From positions 214,406 through 278,405 of the forward strand of contig QPGO01000056.1 in NCBI GenBank assembly GCA_008632985.1: a stretch of DNA of 64,000 bases, read 5' to 3'. A model generated the notes under the pieces. The model made no database searches. It had not been told where the DNA came from and saw nothing but the letters and a program-made list of their open reading frames with translations. The DNA is from Psammoneis japonica (taxonomy: Eukaryota). How positions within the stretch are numbered: the stretch's first letter is position 1; every line of letters begins with the position of its first letter. This document shows positions 698 through 34,338 of this stretch, one piece after another. The position numbers were made by a program, and so were the translations under genes.

Positions 698-1021
698 ACT
701 CAATGGCAACTTCTTCTACGAAAACGAAAGAGAACAGCGGCGGAGGCATCCTGCGTCGAACCGACAGCGTTTTAATCTATCTACGGGCCGGCTTGCTGTT
801 GTTGTTTCCAAAGGAATGAGAGGAAACAAAGCAGCCGGTGAGAGAGGCGGCCAGGAAGTTCGGGAACTTTCAAATGGAATGGGGAATCTCGCCTTGCGGA
901 TTGTTCGAGGACAGTGAGACTGAAAATGACCTTGGCAAGTTTGTGCCTGCTTTTCTGTTTCGTTCGTTGCAGAGCGATGACCGATGATGCCTGTGGCTGA
1001 CCGATGACGTCAGATTGTAAA

Positions 1022-1197
1022 TGAAGAATTTACCATGTGGTTTTATCGGAAACAGTGTTTAGAACTGTGTGTTTGGCGATTCGGAACGGGAAGACTCCAT
1101 CCGAGATCTACTCACAATCTCAGAAATAGTGGCACGATGTTACAACGATTTTCTATAACTTTGCTCTCTAGCAAGCGACCACCGGGTAATTTGTTCA
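1022..1197 (+). repeat. 5' LTR of copia element 1
   Basis: Direct repeat of 7784-7959 with 14 differing nt in 176 by manual alignment; followed by the PBS-like motif at 1198-1214. Confidence 0.95.
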
Positions 1198-1884
1198 CTT
1201 TGTCAGAGCCATTGCCGCATGTGACGACAGTGGCAATGATTGCTGCGCTTGCGAACGATTCGCAATACGACCATTTGTTCCAACTTGTCAGAGATGACAT
1301 GAAAACATCGACGAACGTGAGATGACGTTCGTGCTTGACGAGCATGTAACTCCCAGGGCTAGTTCGGCCGTAATGCTTGTGGATGACAAAAGTGTCGACT
1401 GTCCTGATGTGTTTTGTGAGCGCAAACACGCGGACACAGAGCGCAAATTTGGATCTGGGACGCCATTTCCATGCCGAAGTTATCTCGGAAGCAACTGCGT
1501 GGCGACTTGAAATCGCCAAGTGAGCATACAAACACATCCAAGTTGAACATGTAGACACGACATGATTGACAAATTGTGCGTGTTGAACCTCACTGTTGGT
1601 CAATGTTGACCAGGGAACGAGCACGTCGCCAATGATCGGCACATGCATTGTTCGATCACGTAGATTGTAACAGCAGCCGTTGTATCTGAATTCCAGTGCA
1701 GACATTAATCCACGTGGATTAAACACAAACAGCCATCTGCAGACACGTTGATCGCAGTTGTGACGATTGCTTTTATGCAACGGTGGAAAAGCGATACGAA
1801 GTTCGCACACCTCACTCACTTTTCGTACACAACCACACAAAAGTTTGCGAGAACATCAAATTGCACCGTTCGTAACCATCAACC

Positions 1885-3375
1885 ATGGCAGCAGTCGCTG
1901 CAGCGATGCGTGCTGCCTGTGCCCGACTGGGGTTCACCGCGCAAGCAGCCGCGGCTTTAACCGATGAGCAGGGAATCGACTCAGTCGATGAACTGCGTCA
2001 TCTCGACGACCACGAGGTCGAGACCTCATGCAAGGTCATTCGTCACCCAGGAGGGGCTGTGGCAGGGAATCCGCCGGCAGGAGGGAACGCCCAACCCAAC
2101 CTGGGGACGTCAGTCCCGTTGCGAGCCGAGACCAATCTCAAGCTCACCGCGCATGCAGCTCGTCACTGCGAGTGCATGTCGCAGACGTTGCGAGCTGTCA
2201 ACATCAACCTTGCACGAGTGCGAGGCTGCCGACACTTCCGCACCACAGAGGAGACCTGCGTGCCACCCGAAACGCTGCCAACGATCATCAAGAAGGACTG
2301 GCCGAAGACGATCGAGTCGATTCAGGAGCATCTGCGGGCATGCCGAGGCGAGACGAAAATGCCGCCAGCGCACGTCATCCATGATGGCCAGGAAGCAACT
2401 CCCAAGGCTGATGATCCGGCCACCAACTGCGACAATCCTGTCGAGGAGATGATCGCGAGGGCCCCGCATTTCGCTGCTGGGAATGACCCTCAACCCACCG
2501 AAACGTTCGCGGCCGACAACATCAAAGTGTGGGAAATTGTTGCAGGCATTGCGCGAGAACACACGAGTTGGGCCCATGTCAAGTCGGCCCAGAGGAGTCA
2601 GGATGGCAGGACGGCCTGCCTGAACCCATGCAACCATTTCTTGGGCCCCAACAATGTAGACAACATGGCGAATGCCGCTGAAAAGCGCCTTGCCAGTTTG
2701 TCCCACCACGGGGAAAAGCGCAATTGGAACTTTGAGCGCTGCGTGCGAGTTCATGTTGAACAACATGCGATTCTGGATGGCTTGGCCCAGTGTGGTTATG
2801 CCGGGATCGACGCACGATCCAAGGTCCGCCATCTCCTTGCAAGTGTCAAGGACTTGTCGCTTGACTCAGTCAAGACGCAGATTGTGTCTAGCGCAATGTT
2901 GCGCAACGACTTTGATGCTTGCGTCATTCTGTTCAAGGACTTCATCAAGCAGTCCAAGCCAGACAATGACGCGAAACGTCTTCGTGTTGCGGCTCTCAAG
3001 GCTGGGAAGTGCAGACGAGAGGCTGTCATTCATGCCGATGATGTGGAGGACAAGTGCTGCCCTCCCAAAGAGTGCAGCAAGCTGTCTCCCCAGGCTGGGA
3101 AGAAGCTCAAGTCGCCACGCGACACACGTGGTGACACGAAAAGCGGCAAGGCCACGGCGGCCGGTGACGCCAAACAGATCAAGGCTCTGACCAAGACGGT
3201 TGCTGCTGTTTCAGCTCAGACAGACGATTCATCCGATGAAGGCAGCAGTGAATCTGAAACTGACGAGCCAATGAAGCCTCCGGCTGCCAAGCAGGATTGA
3301 AACCGCGACAACAAGGCGTTGATTCGCAAGGCTGCTCGCAAGCATGTCCCCAAGGCTGGATGTCGCAAGGAGTGA
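1885..3375 (+). pseudogene. copia gag, element 1 (internal TGA at 3298-3300, probably from CGA)
   Basis: 471-aa ORF with KDWPKT...MPPAHVI...HHGEKRNWNFERCV. It continues in frame through NRDNKALIR to TGA at 3373-3375. Confidence 0.85.
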
Positions 3376-6300
3376 CCACCAATGGTGGCTGTCATGCGGC
3401 TCAGTCCATTGCAGACTTTGCGCTTAACCCAGACAAAGGTTGAGGGACCATCGAATGCAGAGTCTCGCATGGACATCGACAGTCATGCAGACATGAGCAC
3501 ACTGGGCAAGCACGCTTTAATTTCACTTGACCATGACAGGCCAGTGGACATGGAAGGGTGCAACCCGACATTGGGTGCCAGCAAGCATCTGCGCACCGTC
3601 AGTGGAGCTGTCACTTGTGCCGATCCTCAGACGGGCCACCCACACGTCTTGGTTGTCCACCAAGCAGTCCATGTGCCACACCTTGAGCACAACTTGCTGT
3701 GTCCAATGCAGTTGTGGCTGAATGACGTGGAACTTTCATTAAAACCGAAGTTTCTGCTGAAAAAGCCCAACGACAAGGAACATGCGATTGTTGCCAAGGA
3801 CGCAAATGGCACCTCATTGACTGCACCTTTGGACCTGGAGGGAGTCTCGAGCTGCTTCCCCTCCAGTGTCCTGACTTTATCTCAACACGAGGATGCGGCC
3901 CAAGACGGGAGTGTGCACGAACTCACGCATGAGTCCCCGGAATGGGACCCCGCCTCCTCTGATTTCCACGCCAGGGAAGATGCCATGACCGATGCTCTTG
4001 GCAGAGTGCATGAGACCGGGGACGATGCACGTCCTCATGTGCACATTGTGAGCACGAAGCTCTCATGCACTGCAGCTCAAGAGACCTCAGACTCTCTGGG
4101 GAATCAGCCATTGCGTGACATTTCCAATGCATGCGATGACCGTTTGCTGCTGGCATCCATGAAACTGTCTTCGCTCAAGACGATGAAGCGCGGCTTCAAG
4201 GTTGACGCTGAACGTTTGGCCGAGAATTGGTCCATCAGCCTCAAGGATGCTCAGAACACTCTCAAGGTTACGACACAGCGTGGAGCTGGGACGGTTCTAC
4301 ATCCTGCGCTGTCGCGACGTTTCCGTGCCAATGATCGACAACTGCGACACAGGTGCATCTCAAAGGAGATGTACTCCGACACCATGTTCTCCTCTGTCAA
4401 GTCCAGGTGAGGGAATGTGTGCGCGCAAGTGTTCGCAATGTCCAATGGATGGGCACGCGCTTGTCCATTGAAGTCAAAACATCCAGCGCACGAGGCGTTG
4501 TCGTTGCTCTTCGTGCAAGAAGGCGTGCCCCATGCTGTGCCAGTGGACGGGGCGAGAGAAGAGACAATGGGGCAGTTTAGCAAGAAAGCCAGGGAGGCTG
4601 ATTGCCACACAAGACAAACTGAACCATGTGCCCCTTGGCCCAACACCGCAGAGGGCACAATTCGTGAACTCAAGAGAGGTGTTGGGCGCAAGATGGTTGA
4701 GTCACAGGCCCCAAAATGCCTGTGGGATGATTGCCTGGAACTGGAAGGCCTCATTGGGTCTAACGCCGCTCGAAGCATCTGTGAGCTTGACGGTGAAGTC
4801 CCGGAAACTGTTGTGTCCGGTCAGACGGCTGACATCTCGCACATGTGCGAACCAGGCTGGTGCGACTGGGTCATGTTTCGAGACACGGCAGTCTCATTTC
4901 CCGAGGACAAGGAAGTCCTGGGGCGATGTCCAGGTCCGAGCAGGGATGTGGGCCCAGCTGTGACGGCCAAGATGCTCAAGGAGAACGGACAGGCAGTCCA
5001 TCGCTCATCTCACAGGGCACCAACTCCGAGGAGCAGGGACACAAGACGCACATGGCGTTGCGTGAAAAGTTTGATGGGTTGACAGAGGTCAAGCTGGGCC
5101 CTGGCATGACCGTCGGGGACTTTGACGACCCTGGCGCAATTGCTCCCACCTTCAAACCGCACAAGGATGACGAGGAACAGGATGTTCCGTCTAGTGCCTC
5201 CGATGAGGATGACATGCCAGACGAAGCCTACGATCAACATGTCAACGCAGAAGCACTGCTGCCTCACGGGGACATGGAACAGACTGGGATGGTGAAGCGA
5301 CGTAAGCTCAATCCGGACGGCACACCCGCCGGACGGGCCAACCCAAACCCAATGCTTGACACTCGTGTGTGTGAGGTCGAGTTCCCTGATGGACAGAAAG
5401 TGGAATTCGCGGCGAATGTCATCGCTGAGAATGTGTTCGCACAGTGTGACAATGAAGGCAACCAGCACTTGTTGCCAGATGCAATCGTTGATCACAAGAC
5501 TGACGGGCATGCTGTCAAGAAGGAGGACGCCTTCATCCAAGGCAGTCGAGGACGTCGATCCATGCACAAGACTGCCAAAGGCTGGCATCTTTGCGTGCAA
5601 TGGAAAGACGGATCCACATCTTGGGAACGACTGTCCGACTTGAAGGAATCTAACCCAGTAGAAATGGCAGAGCATGCCAGGGCTAGATCTGCTGAGGATG
5701 AACCCGCATTTGCATGGTGGGTTCCCTTTGCCTTCAAGAAACGTCAGCAAATCATAGCCGCTGTGAACAAGCGACATCACAAGTGCACTCATGAGTGCGG
5801 GATGCGCATTCCCAAGACCTGTGAAGAGGCAGTCGAGATCGATGAGGCCAACGGCGACCGCTTGTGGCAGGACGCCGTAGACAAGGAGATCGAAGTCGTT
5901 GTGAAAGCCTTTGAGATTGTTGACGATGACGAGGAGCTTGTGGGTTGCCAGCATGTCCGCTGCCACTTGGTCTTTGATGTCAAACTACAAGACTTCAAGC
6001 GGAAGGCTCGTCATGTCGCAGGGGGACATGCCACTGAACCTCCAGCGACCCTGACGTACGCAAGCGTCGTCTCCCGTGAAAGTGCAAGGATTGCCTTCGC
6101 TCTGGCAGCTCTAAATGACTTGGAGGTTAAGGCTGCGGACATTGAGAATGCCTGTGTCACCGCACCTGACAGTGAGAAGATCACTGCAACTCTGGGACCT
6201 GAGTTTGGACCCAATGCTGGGAAGTGTGCCACAGTCAAGCACGCATTGTACGGATTGAAGAGTGCAGGTGCATCCTTCAGGAACCACTTGGCATCGTGCA

Positions 6301-7515
6301 TGCGTCATCTTGGTTGGGAACCATGTCTGGCTGATCCCGATGTGTGGATGAAGGCACAAGTTCGACCAGATGATGGGTTCCGCCACCATGCCTGTGCACT
6401 GTTGCATGTCGACGACGTGCTCATGGCACACCACGGCGCTGCGTTGGCGCTCAAGGAATTGGACCGATGCTTCAAGATGAAACCCGGATCCATCGGTGAC
6501 CCTGAGATGTGCCTTGGGGCGAAGATCCGTGAAGTGCAAATGCCGAACGGTGTCTGCGCGTGGAGCATGAGCTCCAGCAAGTGCATCCAACAGGCTGTTG
6601 GAAATGTTGAGGGGGTGTCTAGATGAGTCCACTCCCAGATGGACGTCACCACGCAAGGCAACGGCTCTGTTTCCCCGCGACTGTCGACCGGAGCTCGACA
6701 TTGCGCCAGAGCTCAGCGCAGAGCGGGCTCGATTTCATCAGTTGCAGGTGGGAGTCCTGCGCTGGATGGTGGAACTCGGACGAGTCGACCTCATGGCAGA
6801 GGTGTCCGAGCTTGCCTCATTCCTTGCCATGCCTGGAGAAGGTCATCTCGACGCAGTCCTGCATGTGTGCGGACACCTTGAGAATGGACATGACGCCACG
6901 TTAGCGTTCGATCCAACGCACCCGGACATCGACATGTCTGACTTTAAGGAATGTGATTGGCAGGCGTTTTACGGGGACGTTAAGGAGGCAATTCCGCCGA
7001 ATGCACCAGAAGCTCTGGGCAAGGACATTGATCTACGCCTGTTTGTAGATTCAGATCATGTGAATGACAAAGTGACGAGACGCTCTCGCACTGGTCATTT
7101 TGTCTGTTTGAACATGGCATTGGTTGCCTGGTTCTCCAAGCGCCAGAGTGCCATCGAGACTTCAGTCTTTGGTGCTGAGTTTGTGGCCATGAAGCAGGGC
7201 ATGGAAGCTTTGCGAGGCCCAAGGTACAAACTCAGGATGATGGGAGTCCCACTCAGCGGACCATCATGCATTTGTGGGGACAACATGTCAGTTGTCCACA
7301 ACACCCAAAGCCCAGAGTCGACTTTGAAGAAGAAGTCTAACTCTGCATGCTGCCATGCCGTTGGGGAGTCGGTGGCCATGGGTGAGTCCCTTGCAGGACA
7401 CATTAGATCGGAATGCAATCCAGCTGATCTTGCGACCAAGATCATGTGCAGTGGCATCAAGCGAGATGGCCTCGTTGGCACGATGCCACACGACACATGT
7501 GATGATTGGGGATGA
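3376..7515 (+). pseudogene. copia pol (protease, integrase, chromo-like segment, RT, RNase H), element 1, disrupted
   Basis: ORFs 3382-4410, 4417-5082, 4845-6626 and 6598-7515 join through one in-frame TGA and two frameshifts. Protease DSHAD is present; the RT YVDD motif reads HVDD (6405-6416). Confidence 0.92.
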
Positions 7516-7783
7516 ATGAAAAATGAACAGTTGCTTCCTCGACTGATTCTTTTTCTGTTTCTCCTTGCATCTGGCAAGCATGTTAGCTTGCACTGGTGGG
7601 CATGTTGGCTCGCATTCCTTCCATGCGCTTCTTGGAAGGGCACAGTTTTAGACCGGCACCCTTTCCCAATTTGGGTTTCAGCAGGTTGTTGGGGTTTCCT
7701 TGTCACTTGGTTGTGGCTAAATGCTGTCGGAGTGTAAATTGGATCAAGCCGATTCAGTGTCTGCTTCAACGACTTGAGGGGAC

Positions 7784-7959
7784 TGAAGAATTTGCCATGT
7801 GGTTTTATCGGAAACAGTGTTCAGAACTGTGTGTTTGGCGATTCGGAACGGGAAGACTCCATCCAAGATCTGCTCACAATCTTAGAAACAGTGGCACGAT
7901 GTTACAATGATTTTCTATGACTTCACTCTCTAGCAAGCGACTGCGGGGTAATTTATTCA
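7784..7959 (+). repeat. 3' LTR of copia element 1
   Basis: Direct repeat of 1022-1197, preceded by polypurine tract GAGGGGAC (7776-7783). Confidence 0.95.
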
Positions 7960-7989
7960 CAAATCGATTCTTCCACTGGCCATCTGACC

Positions 7990-9215
7990 TCCCATGCTGA
8001 CCCTCTGTCTCCCTGATCATTCCCTTGCCATCGCCTTTCTTCCTGCTTTGCTTGGCGGCTTTGCCTTTGGGACCCGACGGCCACTTCCATCCCTTCCTTC
8101 CTGGTTGCTCTCCTTTGTCACTCCTTCCACTTTGCCTCCCACGGAGCTCAGCTGCCGCCCGGAGATGCCGCTGCTCTCCCTCGCCACTTGTGCTGTGCTT
8201 GTCCTCCTGGAGCAACCCTCACTTGAGCTTTCACCTCTGCATGATTTTCCACCATCACACCCCTGCTCTTGCCTGTGCCTCCACCAATTCTGCTTCTTCC
8301 TTGGCTGCTCTTGTGTCAAGTCTGTCAGTCTTGTTCCCAGCCCAGAGCCAGCCGCGTTTGTCACAACCACCACCAGCAAGTCATCGCTGCCACCCTTGCT
8401 GATGCTCCATCCAATGCACAAGTTTCTCCACCCTCTCTCCTGTCCCCACTCACTGGCCTCCCTCTTCACTCCTTCTCCCGCCACTTCCAGAGTTCTCCCC
8501 TTGCATCTGATGCCTGCATCATTGCTGCCCAGCGCAAACTCCGTGCCTTCCCATCCTTCCTCCTTCCCTTGTTGGCACTCCCTGTCCCTGCAGTCACGCC
8601 ATCCTCAACACTTGTGGTGATCATGCCTTCTCTTGCTGGCAAGGCCACAAACTCAATCCATCCAATGGTCTCTGGGACACTCTCTTCATTGTGGCCCAGC
8701 AGATCTCTTGGGACCCTTTGCCCAGCTCTGTCATTCCTCCAATGACATGCTTCTTGAGCATGCAAATCTCCTTCCCACCCGTCTGCTTCTCCATCCTGCC
8801 AATGTTGGCATTTCTGTGCCACCTCCAGCTTCTCTTTCTGCTCCCTCTCACCACCACTGTGTTGCTGCTGATGTTGCCGTCACCCAAGCTCCTTTTCGCC
8901 CTCCTCCAGGTCTGCCCACTCCCTCTTCCCCTGTTTTGGCTGGGGCACACCATTTGAGTGCAAGACTGCTGAAGTTTCTTGAGCCTTCTGCCTCTTCTTC
9001 TTGTGGATCCTTGGTTGCTGCTTCACCCAACAACAATGGCATCTTCCTTGTTCCCTTTGCCATTGATCACCTCGGTGCCAGTCTCCGCTTCTTTGGCCAT
9101 TGATTTCTCTTTGGCTCTTTGCTCTCCTCTGCCTGCTCCCAGCCCAAGCCTCCCTGGCCCTCCTCTTCTGACCTGTGCCACTCCAATGCTTCCTGTTCTG
9201 CCTTCCTCTGCACCT
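7990..9215 (+). mobile_element. 3' remnant of a restriction-like-endonuclease non-LTR retrotransposon (CRE/NeSL/R2-type)
   Basis: Fragmented frames give TCGDHAFSCWQGHK...LWDTLF (Zn-knuckle-like), then LHPANVG...CVAADVAVT...LVPFAIDHLG, resembling the RPAD...DVTV...PFxxDxxG RLE signature. Confidence 0.5.
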
Positions 9216-10617
9216 TGAGGACAGATCCATGGGGGTGAGGGTGCATGTTTAAGGAACCATGAATTTTTTGGAAAAACCCAGAGATGCACTGCACTGTGTG
9301 CATGCGCATTTGCCAAAAAAAACAGTGATGGGTCAAACTTTGTCCAAGTGCATTGACAATGGTTGTGACCATGCATGTGATGTTCAGCTTGTCAACTGCA
9401 GATGTGTCCACAGGTCTGGCCGATCAAACATCAACAGTCGGCATTTCCTGGAAAGTTGTGTCTTGTCCACCACAAGCAGTGCAATTTTGGCAAAAATCAG
9501 CATCAACTTCAACCTGGCAACAGGGAACAGGCCAATGAGCGGCATTGAAGCTTCAAACAAGCAGCTCTCACAGCAATCCAACAGCCCTGATGAGGGTTTG
9601 TTGAACACCTGAGTGTTTTGCATTGTTCCAAGACAGGTCCAAACAGCACGGCAAAGTGCAGGGAATTCCAGGCCCACAAATGTCCACCCTCACCCCCTTG
9701 GATCCATCCTCAACATCTCCATCTGCCCTTCTTTTTTCTGCCACGCCTGGAATCACCTTTCCACTGACTCATCTCCAGCTTTTTCTTCCAAATGCCTTGT
9801 TTCCTGTGTTCTGTGACTGTTCTGCTCTTCTGCTCTGCTGCAGCCACTTGTTCCATGCCTCCTTCTGCTGTTCCCTTCTGTTCTCAACAAGCTTTTCAAC
9901 TCTGTGCTTGGTTTGAAGATTCTGCCCAAGCAGAAAAAAGAAAAATCGAGGATGAACACTTGAGGATGAAATTGTGGCTCCAACAACCTCATGGAGCAGA
10001 AACCATTCCTGGACAAAGATGTCCAGTTTTTGAAATGTGCAATTTTTGCAGTTTGCATGCTTGGGCCACTTCAACTGGCCATTTCTGTGGCTCCCTCATC
10101 AAGTTGTTTGCAGCTGTGCATCAGCATCTTGACAGAAGATGAAGAGAAGCCAGTGGTGAGAAAACAACATGTTTCCTTTTGCTGTGGATGTGTCTCCATG
10201 CAGAGCCCCTTGCAGGAGCCAATGGACATGAGTCGTGATGATCGCTGTGCTGTTTTTTGTTTTTGTGAGGCAGCTCAGTGGCTTGAGAGAGCAAAACTGC
10301 ATCACAAATGACATGAGTGGAGCTGAGGGAACACAAGTGAATGCAGCACACAGCAAATCATGCACAACCAAAAACCTGTTCAATTCCTGTCACTCCCCAT
10401 TTTGCTGGAAGGAGCCACAGGAACCACATCATCACCAAAGGGCTTGGCAAAAGCACTGGAAACAAACTTCCAGGGTGCATGAGAGCAGAAATGACAGGAC
10501 AACAAAAGGGTGGAGCAATGCTTGCACAAGGCAGCACAATGCATGCACAACTTGAATTGCAGGACAGCAACAAGCTCCAAATCACAAGCAGCAGTCTTCT
10601 TGACAGCACCTTGCAAC

Positions 10618-10861
10618 ATGGAAAACCAGTCAAATGGGAACTTCTCTTGAGAAAGTGCAGTGTGGAGCACTTGTCCATTTTTCTTCTTGGGGTCATCTGT
10701 CAATGCCAGCACAAGATTTGTTGGGTGCACCCAGAGACAAATGGAAAACCAGTCAAATGGGAACTTCTTGAGAAAGTGCAGTGTGGAGCACTTGTCCATG
10801 TTTCTTGTTGGGGTCATCCATCAATGCCAGCACAAGATTTGTTGGGTGTGCTCAGAGACAA
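10618..10861 (+). repeat. Tandem duplication of ~122 bp
   Basis: ATGGAAAACCAGTCAAATGGGAACTTCT...CAGAGACA occurs at 10618-10740 and 10741-10861. Confidence 0.9.
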
Positions 10862-13800
10862 AAAAAAAAACTGCACTTGTGGCAAGGAGTGCAGCTTTGC
10901 TGCTGTGATCTCCCTGTTCTGCAATGCAAGCTTGACACTGCAGCTTGAATCTTTCCAGCTTGGGTTGCGAGGCTTCAATGATGGACCTTTGTGTAACTTG
11001 GCAAGACAAAGCTGCTTGGGCTGGGCATCTTGATCTCCCCATCAGGAGAATCAGGTGTGACTTGCACAGACTGGATTCTGTGATGAACAGGGGAGACTCC
11101 TCATCAGGAGGCACATGATGCAAGTTGTGGTCCTGTGAAGCAGGTGCATTGGTGGTGACAGCAACACAGACTGAAGAAGGTTGTGGAGCCAAAGCAATGT
11201 TGTGAGTTGTTGGGAGGTTGACATCACCATCACTCCCCAAACAAGACTTGTGGAGGGTGGTGACAGCTGCTGACTCATGAAAGCTGGCAGCATGGGGCTT
11301 GAGGGGCTCAAGGATGCATGATGGACTTGGAAGACTCAAGGAGGGTGATCCAAAGGTCAGACAAAAAGGTTTGAGAGTGCTGCCTGTGGGGTGGGGCACA
11401 TCTGCACCTTGGAAGGCCTGGACAAGGCTGAGACCAGCATTGAAAGTGCTGCCCAAAGGATGGGGCACATCAGCACTGTGGGAGGTGTGGCAAACATTCT
11501 CAAAGAGTGTGCTGCCATTTGCAGTGGAAGGTGCAAGGTCAGAGCTGCTGAGAGCACAGGATGGGCCTGTTGGTGCATGAGAAGGGGGTGTTTGGTCAAT
11601 GGCACAAGACAGGCCTGTTGAAACACTTTTGGAGTGGCCCATGGTGTTGAACAGGTCAGTTGGGGTGCAGACTGCACAACTGGTGGCACAATGCAGGACT
11701 TTTTGGATGAAGGCAGGGCAGCTGGTGTTCTTGGAAAGTGATGCCACATGATCTGGACTGAGGCAATGCTCACGAAACTCTTCAAGAAAGAGCAAAGTAA
11801 AGTTGCTGCTGACAAGTGCACCAGCTAGAGAGACCTTCAAAGTGCAGAAACTGCCTGATGAAAGCTGCCAGCAAAAAATTGCGACAATGAAACAGGGGTG
11901 TGCAAGGGTGTCATTGCCATTGCATTGGAGTGCATCAATGGCCTCAGGAGCAAGGGAGAACAGATCCTCATCAAAACCAACAATGGCAGGAAAAGCCAAA
12001 GCAGAGTGAAGAGGACTGTCAGCGGGTCCAAGTCCAGCCAAAACAGTGCCAAGCACATGCTTGAATCCATCAACAGACTGTTGACAGGCAAGAATGATGG
12101 TGACAAGTGGGATCAAGGTAGAACTTGGGCAGAAAACTGGAGGCCAGACTTGAGACTAGAAACAAACTTGACCAGCAATTGAGAAGTTGATTTGACATCT
12201 GGACTTGAAAGACTTGGTCTGTGTTGCAAATCAGAAGCTGCTGGGCCATGCTGCCCCTGAAGCACTTTTTGTGTGCTGAGGGTGCAGGCAAGCTTGTTGC
12301 CAGAGTCACAGGGTGGAAGTGCAGCAGCACTTCAAAAATGGGGTTTGGCGGGTTTTGGTTTGTCCCGTTTGCCTTCCTGCTGGCCCACAGAGTTGTGCTG
12401 GCATGTCCAGAGTGATGGCAAGTTAAAACCCCTGCAAGCAAGCTCACAAGAAGAGGTGAACAATCATGTTGAGCCTTTCTCATTTTGTGTCAGTTGGACA
12501 GCCTGGTCAGATGCCAGAGGACAAACAAACAACAAACACAGGAAATGTCATGCCTCTGAACTCTCCAGTGTGGGCCGCAAGCAATCATGGGCACTTCCTT
12601 TCACAATCATCCTCATGGACCTGTCAGAGCTGCAAAAGACCAGCAATCTCTGGAGCAGATTTGGAGCAGCAGACTTGGTGTGCTGTGCAGCAGAGCCAAA
12701 GTTGTGGGGTGTGCTCACTCTTGCACACAGTGTGTGCAGCACAGAAGCCTGTGTTGAGCAGGCTGGTCTGTCATGGATCTGGATCTGTGTCTGCCTGAAC
12801 AGGGGCAGTCAGAAGGAATCTGGAACTTCAACATTGGCAGATCCGAGAACATCCAGAATGTGGAAAATCGAGTCAACACATCTGCATGTCATGCAGCAAT
12901 GAGATCAACAAAATGATCTGGAAAAATTGATCATTGGGTCACTCAAGAAAAAGACATGTCAGAGAACAACAAGAAACAGTGGCCAATGAACTTTGTCATT
13001 GACTTCTTGCAGACAGCTGTTGTTTGGAAAAGTTTTCAACAAGGCAGCACTGCTTTGCCGCTGCTCAGAGAGAAACAGTGCACACAAAGAGACAGTCTGC
13101 TGCAAAGTCAAGATCAGACAGCAGCACAGCACCCAGGAGCCAGGGGACACAAACACATCCCTGACAAAGGGCTGCACTCTGCTGCCATCATCTGGCATTT
13201 GTGCATTTCTGTCCTTTGCACCACATCAATCCCGTGGGCATCGTGACCGCCATCTTGAGTGCACGTGTGCTGGAAGAAAAGCAAAAGTGCCCACACCATG
13301 GACTCAGTCGCAGGACAATTCATGACACAACCATCATGCAGAGCTGCAAAGGTGTGAGTGCTTTGTGCTCCTCACATGACAGAAGCCACATGTCAAATCC
13401 AAAGATGGCATGGTTCTTTGCCACTTGGCTTCTTCTGGATTTTCATTTCAAGTTTCTTCTTTTGGGACGGGCTGAAAACTCTTGCATCTGGGATGCCAAC
13501 AATCTGGGTCTGACCGTCTGCCACAGTCTGGGCATTTGTTGACTTCAATCCCAGATCATTGTCAACTTATGAGCCAAGTCTTTCCCCAAATGCAATGTGA
13601 GAACTGTGCAAGTTTATGAGCTTCTAAAGCCCAAATCACTTCCCACTTTTAAGCATGATCATTCTTTGCACACAATGGTGACCTGCACCCCAATTGACAT
13701 TTGCAGTTTCTTGTTCTTTGAACACATTTGTTTCTGCTTATGATCCACCCTCCTTGTCTGCCAATTTGTCCCACATTTTATCTCTTTGCCATGTTGTTTT

Positions 13801-14082
13801 CAAATCCAAATTTCCAACTGCCACACGTTTTTGCATCTAAATCGCTTTGCAGAAAGTTTTTTTTTTCGTTTTTCTGGATTTTGTTGTTTGCTGCAATTTG
13901 CGTTTACACACCAGTTTGGTTGGTTGCCATGGCGGCAACTGCTCCCACTCCGTTGCTGGCTGCCACCACCTGCAATGGCAGGTCCTCACCCATTGGCACT
14001 GCCCATCCTTCCTCTCTCTCCTTTCTCTTTTCCTCTCTTTTGCATTTCTTGTTTTCCTCCCTGGACAAGTTTGTCTTCTCTC

Positions 14083-15030
14083 TCACCTTCTCTCCTTGAA
14101 CCATGCACCGAATCCTTGGTTGTTCTCTCTGTCTTTCACCACCCACTGACATGGATCATTGTGCTTCCTGATCCCATCCTTGCTCCATCCTTGGTTCCTC
14201 TTCGCCAATTCCCCCGCTGCCTGTGCTGTGCACTTTGCAGGAGCAGCATCTTGCACCATCAGCTTCCTTCTCCTTGCAATGTTGTCTTCCTTTTCCAACT
14301 TCTCTGCCATGTCCATCACCTTGTTGTAGCAGTTCAAGTGCACCAGTGGAGCAAACGCCTCCAACAAAATGGAAAGCCACTCTTGGAGCATGTCGGTTGT
14401 GCTTCTGCCAAACTGCGCTTGTTCCACCACCATCGGCACCACAGTTTCCAAGAACCACATGTGTGTGTCCTTGTCAGCTCTTCTCTTTGTCAAATCTTTG
14501 CACTCCACCAGTGATCCCTCTAAAGCAGCAACTGCACAGATGAAATCAAAGGTGGTGACACTCATCCTGTCAGACAAATGCCTCCAACACAATCAAAGGC
14601 ATGCACACAGCTGCTTGCCTGTCATTCTCCTCCTGATGTTGTCCTGCACATTGTTCCTCTTGTGGTTGAGTTTGGTTCTGAACACCTCTTTGCATTCTTC
14701 CCAGAATGCCTCCAGCAAAGATGCCATGCTCCTCAACTCCTGCAGAACTGTTTTCATGTGATCTCTTCTTGCGGCCAGTTCTTGGTTGAAGATTGTGAAC
14801 TTGCAATGCGGCCAAACACTTTCATTGATTGCCTTTGTCAGCATTGATCCTGTCAATTTCTTGCCCACCACTGGTGCATGATCCAACACAAGACATCCCT
14901 CCGTGGGAGTCACCACAGAACTCGAATCCCCCCTTGTGCACTGGAATCTGTTTAATTCCCCATGTTTGTTTCTTTGTGCATTGAACAAGGCCACCACCGC
15001 AGGACTCATGGCAACTTTGCGTGACACCAC
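14083..15030 (-). pseudogene. Decayed transposon-associated protein of unknown function
   Basis: Contiguous frames ...KEVFRTKLNHKRNNVQDNIRRRM...WFLETVVPMVV...LEAFAPLVHLNCYNK resemble accessory ORFs of DNA transposons. No firm family call. Confidence 0.35.
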
Positions 15031-15863
15031 ACAGGTGAATCACAGGTTGTTGGTTCACCAGCAACTCTTTGTCATGCCCTTTCTCAACCTAACTTGCCGC
15101 TCGACATTTCACTTCCTCCCTCTGTTGCTCCTGTTGCAACTGTCTCCTCCATCTTTTTGTCCTTCCCAATGGCTGCCTCTCACCCCGAACTTCCATCCTT
15201 TCCTGTCGGTTTGTGAACAGGTGACATGTGAAATGAAGGCACTTTGCATGTGATTTTCTCTGTTTTGTCGTTGCTCGCATGTCCTCTCTTGATTCAAACA
15301 GGTGTTTGCATCATTTTTGAGTGCTCATTTCCAACCCCATGTTTGAATTTCTGTCAATCTTCCAATGTTTTGAATTGTGTGCCTTTGCGAGCCAATCCAA
15401 TCCCTCAATGAAGATTGCAACATTGTTCAAATCAATGTCAAACAACACACCTTGTGTTCTCATCTTTGTGCATGCATTGCACCTGTTTCCTGATGCAACA
15501 TCAGCTTCATTTGGTTTAAAAAATTGTGTCAAACCCCCCATTCTTTTGCACAAATCTGTGTCTCTCACTGCCCTCATTTATTTGGTCACATCTCAATCGA
15601 TCATTCCCTCAACTTCCCCGACACCATCTCTCTCCAACTTCTCTCTGTGTCACCCAAACTGATCCAACCCCCTTTTTGACATCGCATGTGTGTGTGCATG
15701 AGGGAACGCATCCGTCCACAATTCCACACATTCTCTTTTGCTCCTCCAATGGTGCCAAAGCATTACACTGTCACTAAGATGTGGTTGTTGTGAGTCGTTC
15801 CCATCACAGGAACACGCGTTCCCTGTGTCACAGCAACATGCCACCCATCGATGATCAAATGGG

Positions 15864-16556
15864 TTGTGTTGCTGGTGGCGGTGTGGAGTCACATGGTGGT
15901 GCGGCAAGCTTTGCCTTCTCTGCCAAGGTTGTTGTCACCCTGCTCTCTTTGCCGCTCACACCCGAAGCCCTTTTAATGTCATTGACATTGGTGGTGGTTG
16001 TGCTGGTTTTGCGATTGCCCGTCATTTGCTTGTTCCTTCCTGCAATGCCTGCAGCATCAAGTCACACCATCTTTGTCATGATTTGGGCTCTGAGTGGTGT
16101 CGTGCCATCTGGCCCAACTCGCCCAGTCGTTGTCCTGCCCTGATCAATCAGGATTTCCTCTCTGAAGATGACACAGTTTGCCGTTTGCACCATCAGAACA
16201 ACACAAAGATTTTCTTCAACAATTTCAATGGGATGCTTTTTGACAACATTGTGACACAGAACCAACTCAAGGAGACACTGTCCAACAAGTGTCCTGAAGG
16301 TGCCATCATCATTTCGCTGGACGTGATGTTGTGTGGGCACACCCACAAATGGAGGCATGCAGCATTTTTCATTCCTGCCTGTCCAGATGATCCATCATGG
16401 GGAGGCAGTGTTGACAGGCACCTGCTTCATGAGTGCACCAAGAAAAGAGATGGTGCCGTCAAGCCAAGGCATTCCACTGGGAATGACCTGGGGACTGACA
16501 TCAAACAAAAGTTCAAGCCTTCCAAAAGTGGGCAGCTTGGTGCCATCCTTTTTTAA
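15864..16556 (+). pseudogene. DOT1-like class I SAM-dependent methyltransferase remnant
   Basis: VIDIGGGCAG (motif I), NQDFL, IFFNNF, NQLKETLSNKCPEGAIIISLD and PSWGG parallel DOT1 motifs (VDLGSGVG, GDF, IFVNNF, HQLKERF..MKEGGRIVSS, VSW). Confidence 0.55.
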
Positions 16557-16634
16557 TTGACCATTTGCACCAACTTACTTCCTGCCTTTACCAACTTGCT
16601 GCTTGGCCAGTTTTGCAGTCCAACAACTTCTTGT

Positions 16635-17260
16635 TCACATGTTTGCCATGTCAAAATTGTGGACTGGACATGCCATGTTCCTTCGATCCAAATTGGTTTT
16701 GTCAGGCAAAGCACGGTGCAGCACTCTTGCATCAAAAACAAATGCAGTGCCTGGTTCTCCCACCAGCAATTGTTTTTCCAAACCCAACCTGGCCAAGTGT
16801 CTTTCACATTCTTTCTCATTCAATGTCACCTTGCAACCATCCGGCCACATCTTGACTGCACCATTGTCCTCCGTTGTGTTGTCAAGGAACAGAAACATGG
16901 TGAAAATTTTGTTTCCCGGAAACAATTCTGTTTCCACGTGATCGCAATGAATTTCCCCCTTTGATCAGAAGTTGGACCTTGAACTTGAAGCAGGAGCATT
17001 TGCCACTGTGTGCCTGCTTGTCTTTTTCTGTCTAAATCATCTGCCATGGGAAAGCCAGGAATTAAGTCCAACATTTTTTCTGCCAACTCAATGCCTTCCG
17101 TCTTGTCCTTTTTGTTAATGGCAAACTCTCCAACAAAATGGTGTCCTTCCTTTTCTTGTTTGCTGCTTGGTGCCTTGTTTGCAAGAGCAGCAATTTGTTT
17201 GAGCAAGGGTTGTGGGGTTTTGAATTCTTGCAAGCAGCCTTTTTTCCCTTCCTGATGCAA
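16635..17260 (-). pseudogene. 2OG-Fe(II) dioxygenase remnant (PhyH-like)
   Basis: In frame: GEIHCD (HxD)...IFTMFLFLDNTTEDNGAVKMWPDG...GEPGTAFVFDARVLHRALPDKTNLDR (distal His and Arg), typical of the phytanoyl-CoA dioxygenase-like family. Confidence 0.65.
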
Positions 17261-20200
17261 ACTTTCTTTGCACCGGCTGCCTTCCTCTTGACAACATGTG
17301 ACTCTGCTTCACCCAGGTGGGTTGGCAACTTGCCATGTTTCTGACATGAGGTTGTTGGCCAACATGCAAATTTCCTGCATCCTTTGACAGAACACTTTAG
17401 CACCATTCTCTGAACATGCCAAATTCAACCAAATCAAATGGGACTTGGTCTGTTTGTTGTGCAGAACGCACCCAATTCAGCGAATGACCGTGGACCGCAG
17501 CCATTGCTCTTCAATGAACAGATCTTTCCCATGCAATCTGTGTTGCACACGGCATCTGTCAGGTGCACGGCACAGACATTTCTTTTGCAAATGGTCCCAT
17601 GTGTTGTGATCTTTGACCATCTTGTTTCCTTCATGTTTTCATTCAATTGGCAATCTTGGCTGCCTCAAAGTGCAGATGCCCCTTTGCTTCCACACTGTCA
17701 TGTCATGGTTGTGGTGTGTCCTTTTGTTTTCAACACCACCCCTGACACAAAGGAACAGTCACCATCCCACGTTCATTCTGCACTCATTGAGATTAAGGTG
17801 CACAATGAACATGCGCAAATTGTGCATTTGTCTGTTGACCAATCATTTTGGTGTAAATTTTTCATGAATGCACAGAATGAGAGCATGTCACACATTTGTT
17901 TGGCAACAGATCAATTTGGCAGCCTTTTTTCATTGATGCAATGAATGAAAGCCTTTGCACCATTGTGGCACATTGTCAATCTCCCGCAGCAAACAGCATC
18001 CTCACAATTCTGGTCTAATTGCTGATCAACAAATGTTGATCAGTGAACGGACAATGTTGGGGTGTTGTCATCTCTCTTTTCCATGACGTGTCATTCCCTG
18101 TGTGAAACAACAATCTCAACATGATCCCACCCAGCAGAATGCTTGCCAACCCATTGCAAAATGGGCCACTCACCTCACCTGTTGTGCCACGTTGCCGCAA
18201 TGCAACCAATGAATCTCATTTTCCTCTGACACATTGCACTTCTTTCCCATCCTCCGAGACGAGGCACAAGTGGACATCTCTGCCTGTGGAAAGTTTTGCA
18301 CAAGGGCAGAGTGCACAAAGGATTGTGAGTTGAAACATGAAGAGGTGAAATGACTCACACAAACAGATGAAGCTACATTGGCCCATTTTCCAGATTTTGG
18401 AGGTCCGGTCAAACACATCAGATTAACTAGACGGAGAATTGATCCTTGCCATGTTCCAGTTTTCACCGGGGATGACTGTGTGCATTGTCCAAATTGCAGT
18501 CTCAAGAGGCATGAGCATTTTCTGCGATGTCCACATTGCAGGCAGGTTCCCATCCAAAAGGCTGTGCAGTTTGATCTTCACTGCAAGGACGTACCTGACT
18601 CTGCATGTGGAATAAAAAATGGCAAGAAAACAAAGGAAGAATCATTCCTCCAGGAAATCAAACAGCACAACGCCAACCTTGTCAGTTGTTGGAGGAACAA
18701 GGAACAACCTCATGGGGTGGGAGGCAGAAAAACTGGGGTTTGTCATTGTCACATTCCAAAAACATTGGTGACCATTCAAACAATGAAAGAGAAGTCAAGC
18801 ACAAATTCTGCCTGAAACAACCTTGCCAGAAGTCAAACAAGCTTTCTGACACGTTCGAAAATGAAATTCTTTTTGTGGAAAAACCTGCCAGGGAGGGATC
18901 AAGGTGTTCCCTTCTCATGCAATTCAAGCTGCATGCAACAGCACATGGTGCCATGGGACCAAAATGCTTTAGAGCAAATGTTTCGACACCTTCAATGCAA
19001 GGCAGAGATTTCATGTTCGGATGCCAACCACCCATGCCGGGACAACAATTTAACTCGTCCATTTGTTTTGCACCTGGGTGCAATGGAGGGAATTGCCAAC
19101 GATGTCATGTTCAGGTCGTGCAAGTTTGACAAAAGAATTCTGGGATTGGGTTTGTCAATGCAGCTCAGAAACATTGTTGAAGATGGGCTGAGCAGTGGGC
19201 CAGCAAGAGAGTTTTTACTTTGCGCAAAGTTTGACCATTCATCTCCAGGGACTGTTGCAAAAGATTTTGGCATGAATGGAGTGATTGCTCAAGGTTGGAG
19301 CTGCAATGGTGGATCAGGTGTTGCAAAGCCTGGAACAACAGAAAAGGAAAAGGATCTCTCTCTGCTGGGTGCAGACAGTGGATTTTGCAACTTACAGTGA
19401 TTTTGGTCCACGTCATGCACCAAAAAGCTTTGCAGGGAACACCAAGGTCTGCCCAAGGAGAAATGACAGATGAGAGGCAAAGGTTGTCTGAGAAATGCAA
19501 AGCCTGGTTGGGTTGCCCAGAAGATTTGCAACGGGTGTTGAAACTCAATGAGGCAGGGACTCACATGACCAGTTTCCCTTGCAACACTTTGACTTGGAAA
19601 ACGAGTGGGAATTCCTCTTGGATGACATCAGCAATGGTGTTGTGTTCATTGATGATTGGCATGATTACAACATTGGCGATGACTTGGTGGACAAGCTGAA
19701 AAGGCATTCGGCGCCAATCACGAACACAACGTTTAACCACATGTCGTGCAACAGAGACATTGTCGGGATTCAGTTGCGCAAGCTGCTGTTCAAGACAGAT
19801 TGTGAATGTGCCAATGCCCTTTTGGAACAACTGGAATCCCCAACAGATGCTTTCAACCTTTCTGCAATGGAGAACCAAGAGGACATTCAGCATGCCACCC
19901 AACACATCAGAGATCACCTGAAGCAATTTGACAATGGAGATCACATGGGCATTTTTGGATTGCTTGTGGATGAAGGGTCAGAGACCTTTTGCTTGGACCA
20001 ATTGCCCACAGCTGGTTCAATTTTACTTTTCACTGTGAGGACACATTGCTTTCCACCACGGTGACGAATTCGCGGCATTTGTGGGTCAGGAAATCAACGG
20101 TGCACCTCTTGTGGCTCTGACTGCATTGAGGGAATCTGTGAAACCAGAAAACCAAGAATCTGTGAAGAGTTTGTTGCAGAAAAATGAAATGGGCTTGTTG

Positions 20201-20996
20201 CATTGCTGGCCAGTGTCAATGATGAAGCGATTGAAGAACAACGGCAATGTGAGCGGAGTGATGTGCTCAATTTGCAGAGATTTCAACACATGGATCCTTT
20301 GTTGACAGACCTGAAGGAGATGCGAATCTGCTGTGTGTTCATTTCACAGTCAATTGTTTGATGTTCTGCGGGCAAAGGACACTGGTGGAAGTCACGATTC
20401 TGCAAGGGAACTTTTGTTTTGTTGCAAAACCAGGAAGATCAAATTGCCCAAGCAGTGGTTGCCGAGCACAAGGTTGGGCAACGTGCGTGCTGCTTTGATG
20501 ATCCAATCAGCTTCCATGATGGGACAAATCCCACCTCAAAATGCAGGAGAGGCACGCACATCCAAGGGTGATTCTGGATTTTGTCTGTTTGTTAACATGT
20601 GTGTTGTTGGGAAGGATGCACACACAAGAGGTGAACAGATCTCCTTGGTGAAGACCAGGGAAGTTGTTCAAAATGCAATTGAAGTTGCACAAAGAAATGG
20701 CAGAAGACCAACTTGGGCCAAATGTGACCAACCAGGCTGCAGGGAATGTCGATCAATGAACAACACGTTGCGGAGGATCCATGCTGCCTTGTGTCTAGCG
20801 ACCATGGTGTCTTGCCCATTTGCTCTTTGGAAAGTTTCAAAAAGTCGACAAGTGGTTTGTGGCCTGATGAATCAGAGCACAGGATTGAATGTTTCATTTG
20901 TGATCAATGGTGTGATTTGTCGACGCATGTCGATGTTTGCTCTTCTGGCAAGTCAAAGCATGACTTGACAAAGCAGAAGGGTTTGTTTCAGTTTCA

Positions 20997-21111
20997 AGAA
21001 TCAAAACTGAGTGGGACCAACCAATGCTTTTAGACAACTTAACATGCTTTTGCAGCTGACTCCAGCTCCATTTTCTAGAATCACAACTGAGTGGGACCAA
21101 CCAATGCTTTT
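20997..21111 (+). repeat. 35-bp direct repeat, 80-bp period
   Basis: AGAATCA(A/C)AACTGAGTGGGACCAACCAATGCTTTT at 20997 and 21077. Confidence 0.85.
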
Positions 21112-21320
21112 TGGCAAGTCAGCACATTTTCACAGCTGACTCATTTGAACAATGTCTGTTGTCTCATAAAACAATTGTGAACTTTTCCTCTTTCCCAAGG
21201 TGCATTTTCATTTCTCATTTTCCTGAGCCCGGCGTTCACCCAGGTGAAGCTGGAGCACTTTGTTGGACAGGAAACATCCTGGCCAGTCATTGTGTCTGTC
21301 AGCAACAAATGACAATGAGT

Positions 21321-24300: not shown

Positions 24301-25540
24301 TGGACCACCCTTCTGTTGCTGCACTGGATTGTTGTGTTCAAGCATCACCACAGCAGTGTGGGAGAGAGGGACATTGGGAAACAGCCCAAGAGTTGCTTCA
24401 TTGCCATGGCGGTCGTGATGGGGGGCTTTGACATGTCCAATCTTTTTTCTGCATGCTCTTCATGCAAAATTCTCATTGCTTTGTCAGTGAAGTCAATTGC
24501 AACACCTGACCGATGACACAGATGCAGCAAATGCACCATGGGCACAATGCTGGGTGAGCAGACTGGAGGCACATCAAAGTCCTCATCAGGGGTGATGTCA
24601 CGCACTGGTCCAAGAGGATTGTGTTGATCAAAGGAAGAAACCGAAATGGATTCAGCACCGGGGGAGGAGGAACAGGCTCTTCCATCGGACGTGAGATTGA
24701 GGGGGGCCCACAACTGCCATCAAGACCGTTGGCTCCAATGAACTTGGGGACATCCACAGGACTGTCCTCTCCAAGGGCAGACACACCATCATCTGCAAAC
24801 AAAACAAATTGGTGGGCATTTTGGGTGGCTGCACTGGTGGCAGCAACATTGGCGGTGGAACGCAATCAACCAGAGCATCTGACGGAGGGTGGGCACAGTC
24901 CATTTCCGGCAGAGGGAGGGCCAGCTGGAGAAGAATTGTTGAATTGTGTGGGAGGAGGTGGATCTGGATTCCAAAGGACTTCAGGAAGGGGAGGCAGGGG
25001 TTCGTCATTGAAAAAACCAAACACAGCAGGATCATCATGGTCGTCAAGTGATTTGCCATCTGGAGGGGGCAGCAAATTTGCGGCATTTGAAGATGCGGCA
25101 AACCGGCAAAGAGACATTTCCTCCTTTTCATGGCAGGGCAAGCACTTCTGTAGATGAAGGGCAATGTTGGAAAAGGGGACACGGCAATGGGGGCATTTGG
25201 GTTTGTCGGTGTTGGACCCAAGGGAGGCAACGGAGGCAGAATCCAGAGGATGAGAGGAAAGAGATGTCCCGCTGGACAGGGAAGATGATTGGGCATTGTG
25301 GTGCAACTGTGTTGATGGGGAAGGGAGAACAGATGCAGCAGTGCAGTGCCAAGATGGGTGACACTGAACATTGGTTTTGGAGTCAAAACCACGTTGTCCG
25401 CAACAAGGACACAACTGAAAGACTTGGTTGGAACGGCGGAACGGAGGCAGTCAGTTGCGATGTGTGCCTGCTGAGACCACATTCAGAAAAGAAACCAGTT
25501 GGTTTGCACCAAGGACAAACAAGACCATCAGACAACATGG
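21321..25540 (-). mobile_element. Degenerate Plavaka-like (CMC-related) DNA transposase
   Basis: N-terminal C2H2-like fingers (CPWC..SRH, CPCC..QCH, CPHC..LH), then LDKTG...MEPAMCSL...WHPLGFTPNLD...LLGDVLNQERICGR...GDNPRGAFGVTIADMRH...KFHSLLHL...NFSAMIEESHLKFWAKLP...AHPNYNNNGLWHD, across several frameshifts. Confidence 0.65.
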
Positions 25541-28840: not shown

Positions 28841-29121
28841 TTCTTCCGAGGATGACGGCTCTTCAGTAGTATGAACCGGTGGTATAAAGTAGTACCGCAG
28901 TTATTTTTTTCAAGTTTGATTTGTTTCTAGCTTTCTTGCTGGTGCTTCTGTACTTTTGTGCTTCTTGGCAGGACAACTTCCAAACTTGAAATGATCCTTG
29001 GTCGGTCCGTCATCCGTCATGCGCACCTCACAACCGACAACCGGCAGAATAGAAGCGATGGCGGCCAGCTGATGCAACACATCACACATCGCTTTCACTA
29101 TTGTCACCGGCACCCGAGACC

Positions 29122-34156: not shown

Positions 34157-34338
34157 CGAGTAAATCTGGGTGGAGCGGTCAGTCCCTGGTCCGGGGCTGA
34201 CGCGCACGATCTGGTGGTTTGTTCTTTCCCACAATCTTATACGATCTAATCGACATAGGGTTCTCTTTGGTTTGTCACTACTACTCTTAGGCTTAAGGTA
34301 CTATCATTACCCCACGCGGCTACATCGGTATTTATTCG
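34157..34338 (+). repeat. 5' LTR of copia element 2
   Basis: CGAGTAAAT...ATTTATTCG; matches 40807-40988 except at 34210 and 34254. Confidence 0.97.

Follow-up and report, generated by a model that had tools for sequence, protein, structure and literature searches.

Post-insertion, regional loss of TpA dinucleotides as the probable cause of long terminal repeat divergence in a copia retrotransposon of the diatom Psammoneis japonica

What makes the two long terminal repeats (LTRs) of one retrotransposon differ almost only at sites where at least one of them reads TG or CA? The case arises in copia element 1 (1022-7959), which lies in a 64,000-nucleotide stretch of the genome of the diatom Psammoneis japonica (GenBank assembly GCA_008632985.1, contig QPGO01000056.1, positions 214,406 to 278,405, forward strand; this whole stretch is called the window below, and positions count from its first letter). 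We consider it highly probable that element 1 underwent post-insertion, regional hypermutation of TpA to TpG or CpA, with a signature as in the alga Bigelowiella natans. On this explanation the LTRs would have been identical at insertion and altered later in the chromosome by a process turning TpA into TpG or CpA, that is A to G on one strand or the other, with a slower CpG to TpG/CpA decay alongside. Seven sites at which TA in one LTR faces TG or CA in the other would then be TA losses, and two sites at which TG faces CA would be ancestral TAs lost on opposite strands. The process would act regionally, nearly stripping the interiors of transposable elements (TEs) and an 18-kb block of TA while sparing host genes and gene-side intergenic DNA.

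The LTRs of element 1 (5' LTR, 1022-1197; 3' LTR, 7784-7959; both plus strand) were the only direct-repeat family in the first 10 kb, where the repeat search paired 1022-1198 with 7784-7960 at 92% identity. Their MAFFT alignment (1022-1197 with 7784-7959) was gap-free over 176 nt, and a script counted 14 differing nucleotides, reproducing exactly the initial annotation's tally of seven TA-type differences, four nucleotides in two TG-versus-CA sites, two CG-type differences and one transversion. TA was opposed to TG at 1032, 1110, 1157 and 1193 and to CA at 1060, 1121 and 1127, giving products of 4 TG to 3 CA by strand at these single sites. The double sites, TG versus CA, lay at 1162-1163 and 1180-1181; CG stood against CA at 1103 and against TG at 1146; and the transversion was C/G at 1183. 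Five TAs were retained by the 5' LTR alone, two by the 3' LTR alone and five by both, the 5' LTR having 10 TA and 9 CG and the 3' LTR 7 TA and 7 CG. All 13 transitions fell inside pyrimidine-purine (YpR) dinucleotides. Because these cover 48% of LTR positions, the probability of this by chance is 0.48^13 = 7e-5, or 3e-4 when the 11 events are counted instead of nucleotides, and the 92 non-YpR positions showed no difference at all. The context-restricted spectrum described in the initial annotation is therefore upheld. Given TA and CG as the ancestral states, the 3' LTR bears seven of the nine single-site YpR changes.

Control pairs were taken from 79 related copia loci (46-62% amino-acid identity) found in metagenome contigs with a profile of the reverse-transcriptase region. 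Eleven of their terminal-repeat pairs, not verified as true LTRs, differed internally and gave 178 events over 3083 nt: 54 transversions, 57 non-YpR transitions, 28 TA-type changes, 37 CG-type changes and two TG/CA doubles. The 12 events of element 1 comprised one transversion, no non-YpR transition, seven TA-type and two CG-type changes and two doubles. TA-type changes and doubles together thus made up 9 of 12 events in element 1 and 30 of 178 in the controls (Fisher p = 3.9e-5).

The direction of change was examined in coding sequence, where outgroups were plentiful. Columns were called conserved when one residue occurred in at least 70% of at least 40 homologues, using the 120 best homologues of the open reading frame (ORF) for reverse transcriptase. 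Of 23 conserved tyrosine columns, element 1 has His (CAY) at 10, Cys (TGY) at nine and Tyr at four. A second copia element in the window, element 2 (34157-40988, plus strand; 43% amino-acid identity to element 1), has His at nine, Cys at 11, Met at two, Phe at one and Tyr at none. Both strands are therefore affected equally (His:Cys ratios of 10:9 and 9:11 for elements 1 and 2). Other conserved residues were kept by element 1 (His 13/13, Cys 7/7, Phe 14/15, Trp 14/15), and no Tyr was gained at any of its 13 conserved His or seven conserved Cys columns. Tyrosine makes up 2.3-5.8% of residues in the 120 relatives, 0.5% in element 1 and 0.3% in element 2. The loss reaches the catalytic region: the YxDD box, YVDD in relatives, has become HVDN in element 2 and HVDD in element 1, where CAT at 6405 encodes its His, and the reverse-transcriptase block YYAY..LLYVDD of relatives reads HHAC..LLHVDD in element 1. 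Against the 37 tyrosines of one homologue (P0003), His or Cys stands at 25 positions in element 1 and 21 in element 2; in all 79 metagenome relatives it stands at three or fewer.

At three columns the Tyr codons of elements 1 and 2 were altered on opposite strands, TGT versus CAT, and at one conserved Tyr (6384-6385) this copy has CAC and other genomic copies TGC; these codons illustrate in coding sequence how the double sites arise. Among the 10 columns at which both elements lost Tyr to His or Cys, a hand count gave seven concordant and three discordant choices, not different from independent events. Runs of TA to CA and TA to TG along element 1, also counted by hand, numbered about 14 with about 16 expected, showing no clustering. 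As a separate observation, one metagenome sequence (P0023) was the sole low-Tyr member of the 120 relatives, with 2.3% Tyr and raised Cys (2.3%) and His (4.3%); it could represent a copy from a different organism that has been hypermutated in part.

Three non-coding sites could also be polarized. The primer-binding site (PBS) has TG in element 1 and TA (TTTAT...) in element 2 and in two metagenome relatives (L057 and L045); by sequence comparison, this difference reads as a polarized TA to TG change in element 1. The last ~40 nt of the LTRs align between the two elements, and element 2 has TA at the positions matching 1193 and 1180-1181. Because element 2 has TA at 1193, it is the 5' LTR of element 1 that lost a TA there, and at the double site 1180-1181 the CA and TG of the element 1 LTRs face TA in element 2, in line with the origin that the initial annotation gave for such sites. 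The initial annotation had taken TA as ancestral and had weighed this against ancestral TG/CA; wherever polarity could be assigned (the Tyr columns, the PBS, 1193 and 1180-1181) the outgroups had TA, and we infer the same state, on strong indirect grounds, at the other seven of the nine TA-type LTR sites. The doubles point the same way. If TA was the source, the five shared and seven single TA sites give a per-copy loss of ~0.41 and an expectation of 1.2 visible doubles; with CG as the sole source 0.08 would be expected, and two or more would arise with P = 0.003. Two tandem repeat pairs within the TA-poor block (10645-10869 and 20989-21142) each carry two CA-versus-TG doubles, making up 2 of 8 and 2 of 11 events, compared with 2 of 178 in the controls.

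Further copies of the element were found in public sequencing data. One run (X1) contains 57% of the 31-mers of the window, and 1424 of its contigs match 900-8100 at 80% likeness or more, 347 of them at 99% or more, which indicates that the element 1 family is high-copy; two other runs (X2 and X3) contained almost nothing of the stretch. Interior variants were polarized by taking the majority state of the other copies as ancestral, in the 40 best-supported of 1147 variant rows, a biased sample with none in the LTRs. TA was lost to CA or TG four times and to TT once, and gained from CA or TG twice (5303 and 7225); CG was lost to TG or CA 10 times and gained from them three times. The remaining rows held five CA/TG doubles, seven other transitions and three other transversions. 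Scaled to the targets in the element 1 interior (56 TA, 1223 CA plus TG, 397 CG), TA loss in this sample was ~40 times TA gain and ~3 times CpG loss.

That the changes took place in the chromosome after integration, as the initial annotation proposed, follows from LTR biology if both LTRs belong to one insertion. The candidate target-site duplication (TSD) is TAAA before the 5' LTR (1018-1021, plus strand) and CAAA after the 3' LTR (7960-7963, plus strand), a match at three of four positions with the mismatch itself TA/CA. The 4-bp length was assigned by analogy with the perfect CAGT/CAGT of element 2. The TSD lends modest support to a single insertion, weak when taken by itself. Element 1 adjoins the TA-poor block on its 3' side, and the excess of changes in the 3' LTR together with CAAA fits an intensity that varies by domain (one-sided p ~0.09 by hand, small numbers).

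Several points weigh against this reading. Direct polarization covers only two of the nine TA-type LTR sites (1193 and 1180-1181) and uses a ~40-nt alignment between families with 43% amino-acid identity. The only other LTR ends of the element 1 family that were found, a loose-end consensus of five contigs, read TG at 1180-1181 like the 3' LTR, and because of this TG at insertion is possible there. TA gains occur too, two against four or five losses in the best-supported rows, and near compositional equilibrium some of the LTR sites could be gains instead of losses. A PBS-like sequence stood beside the repeat in only two of 14 control loci inspected, most being unproven as LTRs, and the three-of-four TSD match of element 1 has a chance probability of ~0.05. 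Finally, simple uniform-rate decay in situ cannot give the pattern of element 2, because its LTRs are TA-rich and near-identical and its interior is stripped.

The loss of TpA was regional. TpA was scanned as observed/expected ratio (obs/exp) in 2-kb bins and, applying the thresholds used for B. natans, in 1-kb intervals. Over the whole window obs/exp was 0.29, falling to 0.17 in the interior of element 1 (56 TA; CA 1.44, TG 1.58, CG 0.81) and to 0.21 in the element 2 interior; CA and TG stood at 1.3-1.6. The bins at 8-26 kb gave 0.01-0.09 for TpA and 0.04-0.36 for CpG; TE interiors and the bins at 58-64 kb gave 0.08-0.23 for TpA and 0.8-1.0 for CpG. Genic bins stood at 0.41-0.70, and the 1.7-kb intergenic segment 32459-34156, which follows a Dis3-like gene, at 0.72. 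The GC content of the affected parts was 53-57%. Both cut-offs (at most 0.43 for Rho TpA, at least 1.52 for Rho CpA+TpG) were satisfied by 26 of the 64 1-kb intervals, 19 of them consecutive across 8-26 kb. The block there (7960-26430), of complex sequence, is nearly free of TA and poor in CG; positions 8000-26000 hold 74 TAs (TpA obs/exp 0.06, CG 0.25, CA+TG 1.72). Its edges are sharp, with no TA from 7954 to 9250 and the usual density again near 26430. Among 14 ORFs of the block, no Pfam match at E <= 1 was found except two sub-threshold ones, and its longest ORF (444 aa, 10821-12155, minus strand) had no homologue found.

The in-window control was a host gene for a PEP synthase/pyruvate, water dikinase-like protein (46837-49059, minus strand), in which seven of seven conserved Tyr were retained. 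The mutation process is regional, affecting TE bodies and the 18-kb block, and not a property of the whole genome; host sequence is spared within this one window, in which the block is of unassigned origin.

The TAs that survived show a context of their own. The ATAN/NTAT context accounted for 17.6% of surviving TAs in the two TE interiors (1198-7783 and 34340-40806) and 13.5% in the 18-kb block (8000-26000); in the 79 related elements the figure was 51% of 18069 TAs. ATAT occurred in none of 205 survivors, and TTAA was 2.8- to 5-fold over-represented (p = 1.7e-5 and 8e-11). These biases suggest a sequence preference that extends further than TpA itself, with the caveat that some survivors may be newly made TAs.

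Element 2 poses a separate problem. Over 183 nt its LTRs show two differences (99% identity), one of them a TA/CA site, and there are 15 TAs in each LTR (obs/exp 1.36). None of the 23 conserved Tyr remains in the interior, and both ORFs of the element (542 and 1470 aa) are open, with neither TAA nor TAG stops in the 1470-aa ORF. The drop in TA occurs within ~200 bp of the LTR edges, and the flanks have a TpA obs/exp of 0.64-0.9. One possibility is editing of a replication intermediate that spares the LTRs, where the equal His:Cys numbers argue against single-strand editing; others are that small RNA or chromatin directs the process to the internal region alone, or that copies are mobilized in trans while selection preserves their cis-acting ends. 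The usual retrotransposon end rule is TG...CA, and element 1 follows it; both LTRs of element 2 start with CG and end with CG (34157-34158 and 34337-34338, and the same in the 3' LTR).

In the literature searched, TpA-directed hypermutation was found only in a preprint on B. natans, with nothing on diatoms or LTR retrotransposons. As described in that preprint (Mettrop et al., 10.64898/2026.01.13.699255), 231 of 302 nuclear point mutations in B. natans mutation-accumulation lines fell in two integrated viral regions, and 230 of the 231 were A to G or T to C and lay without exception on TpA; the rate, ~6e-7 per site per generation, was about 1000-fold background and was reached in some lines only. 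The preprint also reports enrichment of low-TpA coding sequences for reverse-transcriptase and DDE domains, a Rho TpA of 0.45 in the region derived from a nucleocytoplasmic large DNA virus (NCLDV), a virophage region that is still TA-rich, an ADAT2-like deaminase put forward as a hypothesis only and, in its Discussion, the preference of ADAR for a 5' U ahead of the edited A (10.64898/2026.01.13.699255).

Set beside that account, the P. japonica pattern shares A to G and T to C at TpA, TpG and CpA products on both strands, confinement to particular regions, and depletion of TpA with enrichment of CpA plus TpG. It differs in host, a diatom (Stramenopiles) instead of a chlorarachniophyte, and in targets, which here are LTR retrotransposons and the 18-kb block and there giant-virus and virophage inserts. 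Depletion is near saturation here, at obs/exp 0.06-0.21 compared with a Rho of 0.45 in the NCLDV region, and the evidence is historical (an LTR pair and outgroups) whereas that from B. natans was obtained in real time. Survivors that avoid a 5' A or 3' T, and spared LTRs of a young copy, are not described in the available part of the preprint.

The sequence shows the spectrum, its direction both in coding sequence and at three sites outside it, and its regional restriction. The chemistry could be adenine deamination of DNA, A to inosine read as G, by an ADAT2/TadA-like deaminase; we regard this as an even bet. A modified thymine mispairing with G, or a bias of repair or polymerase, would be an alternative. 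The process would presumably be directed by chromatin or small RNA at silenced foreign DNA.

The pattern of element 2 is a reason to consider that the elements had already lost most of their interior TAs when they integrated, through APOBEC3-like editing of the RNA or cDNA replication intermediate with the LTRs spared; the LTR-pair differences of element 1 would then be a smaller, later chromosomal part. Gradients of the APOBEC3G type do spare LTRs, which would fit element 2, where 0 of 23 conserved Tyr remain beside LTRs with 2 of 183 differences and a TA obs/exp of 1.36, both ORFs are open, and TA falls away within ~200 bp of the LTR edges, between flanks normal in TA. In element 1, too, the interior (19 of 23 Tyr lost) is more depleted than the LTRs (~41% per copy). 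However, editing of minus-strand cDNA alone predicts TA to CA, hence Tyr to His, and His and Cys are equal in number (10:9 and 9:11) and interspersed without strand-coordinated runs. The B. natans data, the sole experimental evidence, concern chromosomal mutation of integrated DNA in vegetative growth, and editing before integration leaves the 18-kb block unexplained. Like the process proposed here, APOBEC3 and ADAR editing is deaminase-type hypermutation of retroelements. Its substrate, however, is RNA or a single cDNA strand prior to integration, whereas in element 1 the divergence arose between the LTRs of a copy already in the chromosome, with equal effect on the two strands. We therefore think an origin before integration unlikely.

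A genome-wide, untargeted bias, in which TpA is hypermutable everywhere, selection keeps TA in genes, and TEs and junk drift to equilibrium, is harder still to sustain and in our view improbable. Genic TpA is itself lowish (obs/exp 0.4-0.7), 44 of the 64 1-kb intervals have a TpA obs/exp of 0.43 or less, and the 18-kb TA-poor block is without a recognizable TE protein, all of which such a bias would accommodate. Yet TpA is highest in the window, at obs/exp 0.64-0.72, in the element 2 flanks and the intergenic segment 32459-34156; boundaries such as those close to 26430 and along the element 2 LTRs are abrupt; and 15 TAs survive in each element 2 LTR beside a stripped interior. The B. natans process is likewise limited to particular regions and lines.

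It is very improbable that modified TpA in silenced DNA (N6-methyladenine or a modified thymine) was misread as G or C by a long-read basecaller. The sequencing platforms of the window and of run X1 are not on record, which leaves this reading some room, and modification-linked basecall errors are motif-specific; but 347 of the 1424 X1 contigs match at 99% or more (X1 may be the same sample), the states are fixed, copy-specific and coherent as codons (CAY/TGY), one LTR differs from the other, and the B. natans mutations were called from Illumina data.

The direction of fungal repeat-induced point mutation (RIP), with TG/CA ancestral and C to T at CpA/TpG making the TAs, has almost no claim left: a two-sequence comparison alone cannot separate loss from gain and two majority-polarized TA gains were found, but RIP raises TpA and lowers GC where here TpA obs/exp is 0.06-0.21 and GC 53-57%, conserved Tyr became His or Cys with no conserved His or Cys turning into Tyr, the long ORF of element 2 lacks TAA and TAG, the doubles would need CG alone, and the outgroups have TA at 1193, 1180-1181 and the PBS. 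The process resembles RIP in being a transition hypermutation that depends on sequence context, disables chromosomal DNA of repeated or foreign kind, affects both duplicate copies and makes sequence divergence useless as a clock. Unlike RIP, which is C to T mainly at CpA and creates TpA, stops and AT-rich DNA, it destroys TpA, raises GC slightly and leaves ORFs open.

Two other candidates were rejected: biased gene conversion, as it is not dinucleotide-specific, and selection against UpA in RNA, as it cannot diverge the two LTRs of one copy or remove conserved Tyr.

Deamination of 5-methylcytosine at CpG also yields TpG and CpA and is a minor component here, seen in two of the 12 LTR events, 10 of the polarized interior changes and the CG obs/exp of 0.25 in the 18-kb block. 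It cannot yield TA-versus-TG/CA sites or Tyr to His/Cys changes, and in elements 1 and 2 CG remains at 0.8-1.0 while TA is at 0.17-0.21. As a side observation, three related copia metagenome contigs (L044, L046 and L056) combine CpG obs/exp of 0.01-0.10 with CA/TG of 1.5-1.6 and TpA of 0.45-0.51, which is heavy CpG decay without the TpA signature.

To our knowledge, A to G change at TpA as a means of disabling invading DNA had not been known from any eukaryote before the 2026 preprint. The preferred reading, post-insertion TpA hypermutation of element 1, is the same kind of process as in B. natans, in a second lineage, on LTR retrotransposons and nearer saturation. The process is probably widespread in algae of the SAR supergroup and acting on transposons, and a second lineage helps in finding the enzyme by comparative genomics. 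A bolder version, tentative and to our minds doubtful, would be a TpA-directed, RIP-like defense in diatoms or this lineage, far stronger than in Bigelowiella, in which every accessible TA of a transposon body becomes TG or CA and Tyr is removed without stops. It would be aimed at the element interior or the replication intermediate, so that new insertions arrive, or soon become, dead inside with pristine TA-rich LTRs, would prefer A at -2 or T at +1, and would be shared across the SAR supergroup. If this were true, the deaminase could be found by comparing genomes with and without the signature. How the process is targeted becomes a concrete question in element 2, whose LTRs and interior contrast so strongly.

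There are practical consequences as well. An LTR age taken from total divergence would be too old, because the pair differs at 14 of 176 positions (8%) overall and at 0 of 92 non-YpR positions; this supports, as an inference, the initial annotation's warning that LTR dating is inflated, by a factor that is not boundable from one pair. Long TE ORFs are no sign of activity, because neither TAA nor TAG can arise through TA to TG/CA change. Such TEs escape homology searches, with Pfam reverse-transcriptase scores of only 37-46 bits, and depletion of TpA and Tyr can serve as a detector of TEs and foreign DNA.

Element 1 is a diatom-type Ty1/copia LTR retrotransposon of a CoDi-like lineage. Its LTRs have TG...CA ends and are spaced by 6762 nt. 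One base after the 5' LTR lies the PBS-like TTTGTCAGAGCC (1199-1210, plus strand), with TG where relatives have TA; this site is presumably complementary to an initiator tRNA. The internal region (1198-7783, plus strand) is a degenerate gag-pol in at least three frames; tblastn relatives span 4369-7506, with frame changes near 5013-5043 and 6611-6652. The reverse-transcriptase domain (RVT_2, 5955-6506, plus strand) matched PF07727 with 37.5 bits over a cut-off of 31.6 (E 2.6e-9). Homologues with PF07727 numbered 1632, the named ones coming from the diatoms Fragilaria and Nitzschia, and the named homologues of the reverse-transcriptase ORF were from Fragilaria crotonensis and Nitzschia inconspicua. 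Neither element 2 nor the ORFs at 1885-4410 gave an rve/integrase Pfam match, and relatives align only from 4369 on. The polypurine-tract-like TTGAGGGGAC (7774-7783, plus strand) stands directly ahead of the 3' LTR, and the equivalent in element 2 is GCGGGGAC; the tract preceding the 3' LTR of element 1 was also read as GAGGGGAC. A blastn search of the 64-kb window gave no further copy or solo LTR of element 1, and patterns derived from its LTRs had 0 matches in metagenome contigs and 0 in viral contigs.

Elsewhere in the window, the TA-poor stretch 58000-64000 (TpA obs/exp 0.12, CG 0.86, GC 57-60%) contains a faint RVT_1 match at 61067-62641 and is probably another retroelement. A further 1.16 kb without TA (49870-51032) lies in a bin with a CG obs/exp of 0.38. 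The best matches of the dikinase-like protein are 76-78% identical, none above 78%, and the named ones are diatoms. Other host genes between the repeats encode a Dis3/Rrp44-like exoribonuclease (two long ORFs, 29053-32458, plus strand), an EF-hand protein (52049-53527, minus strand) and an arrestin-domain protein (54642-55664, plus strand). The host ORFs are long and uninterrupted, which suggests that the genome is intron-poor.

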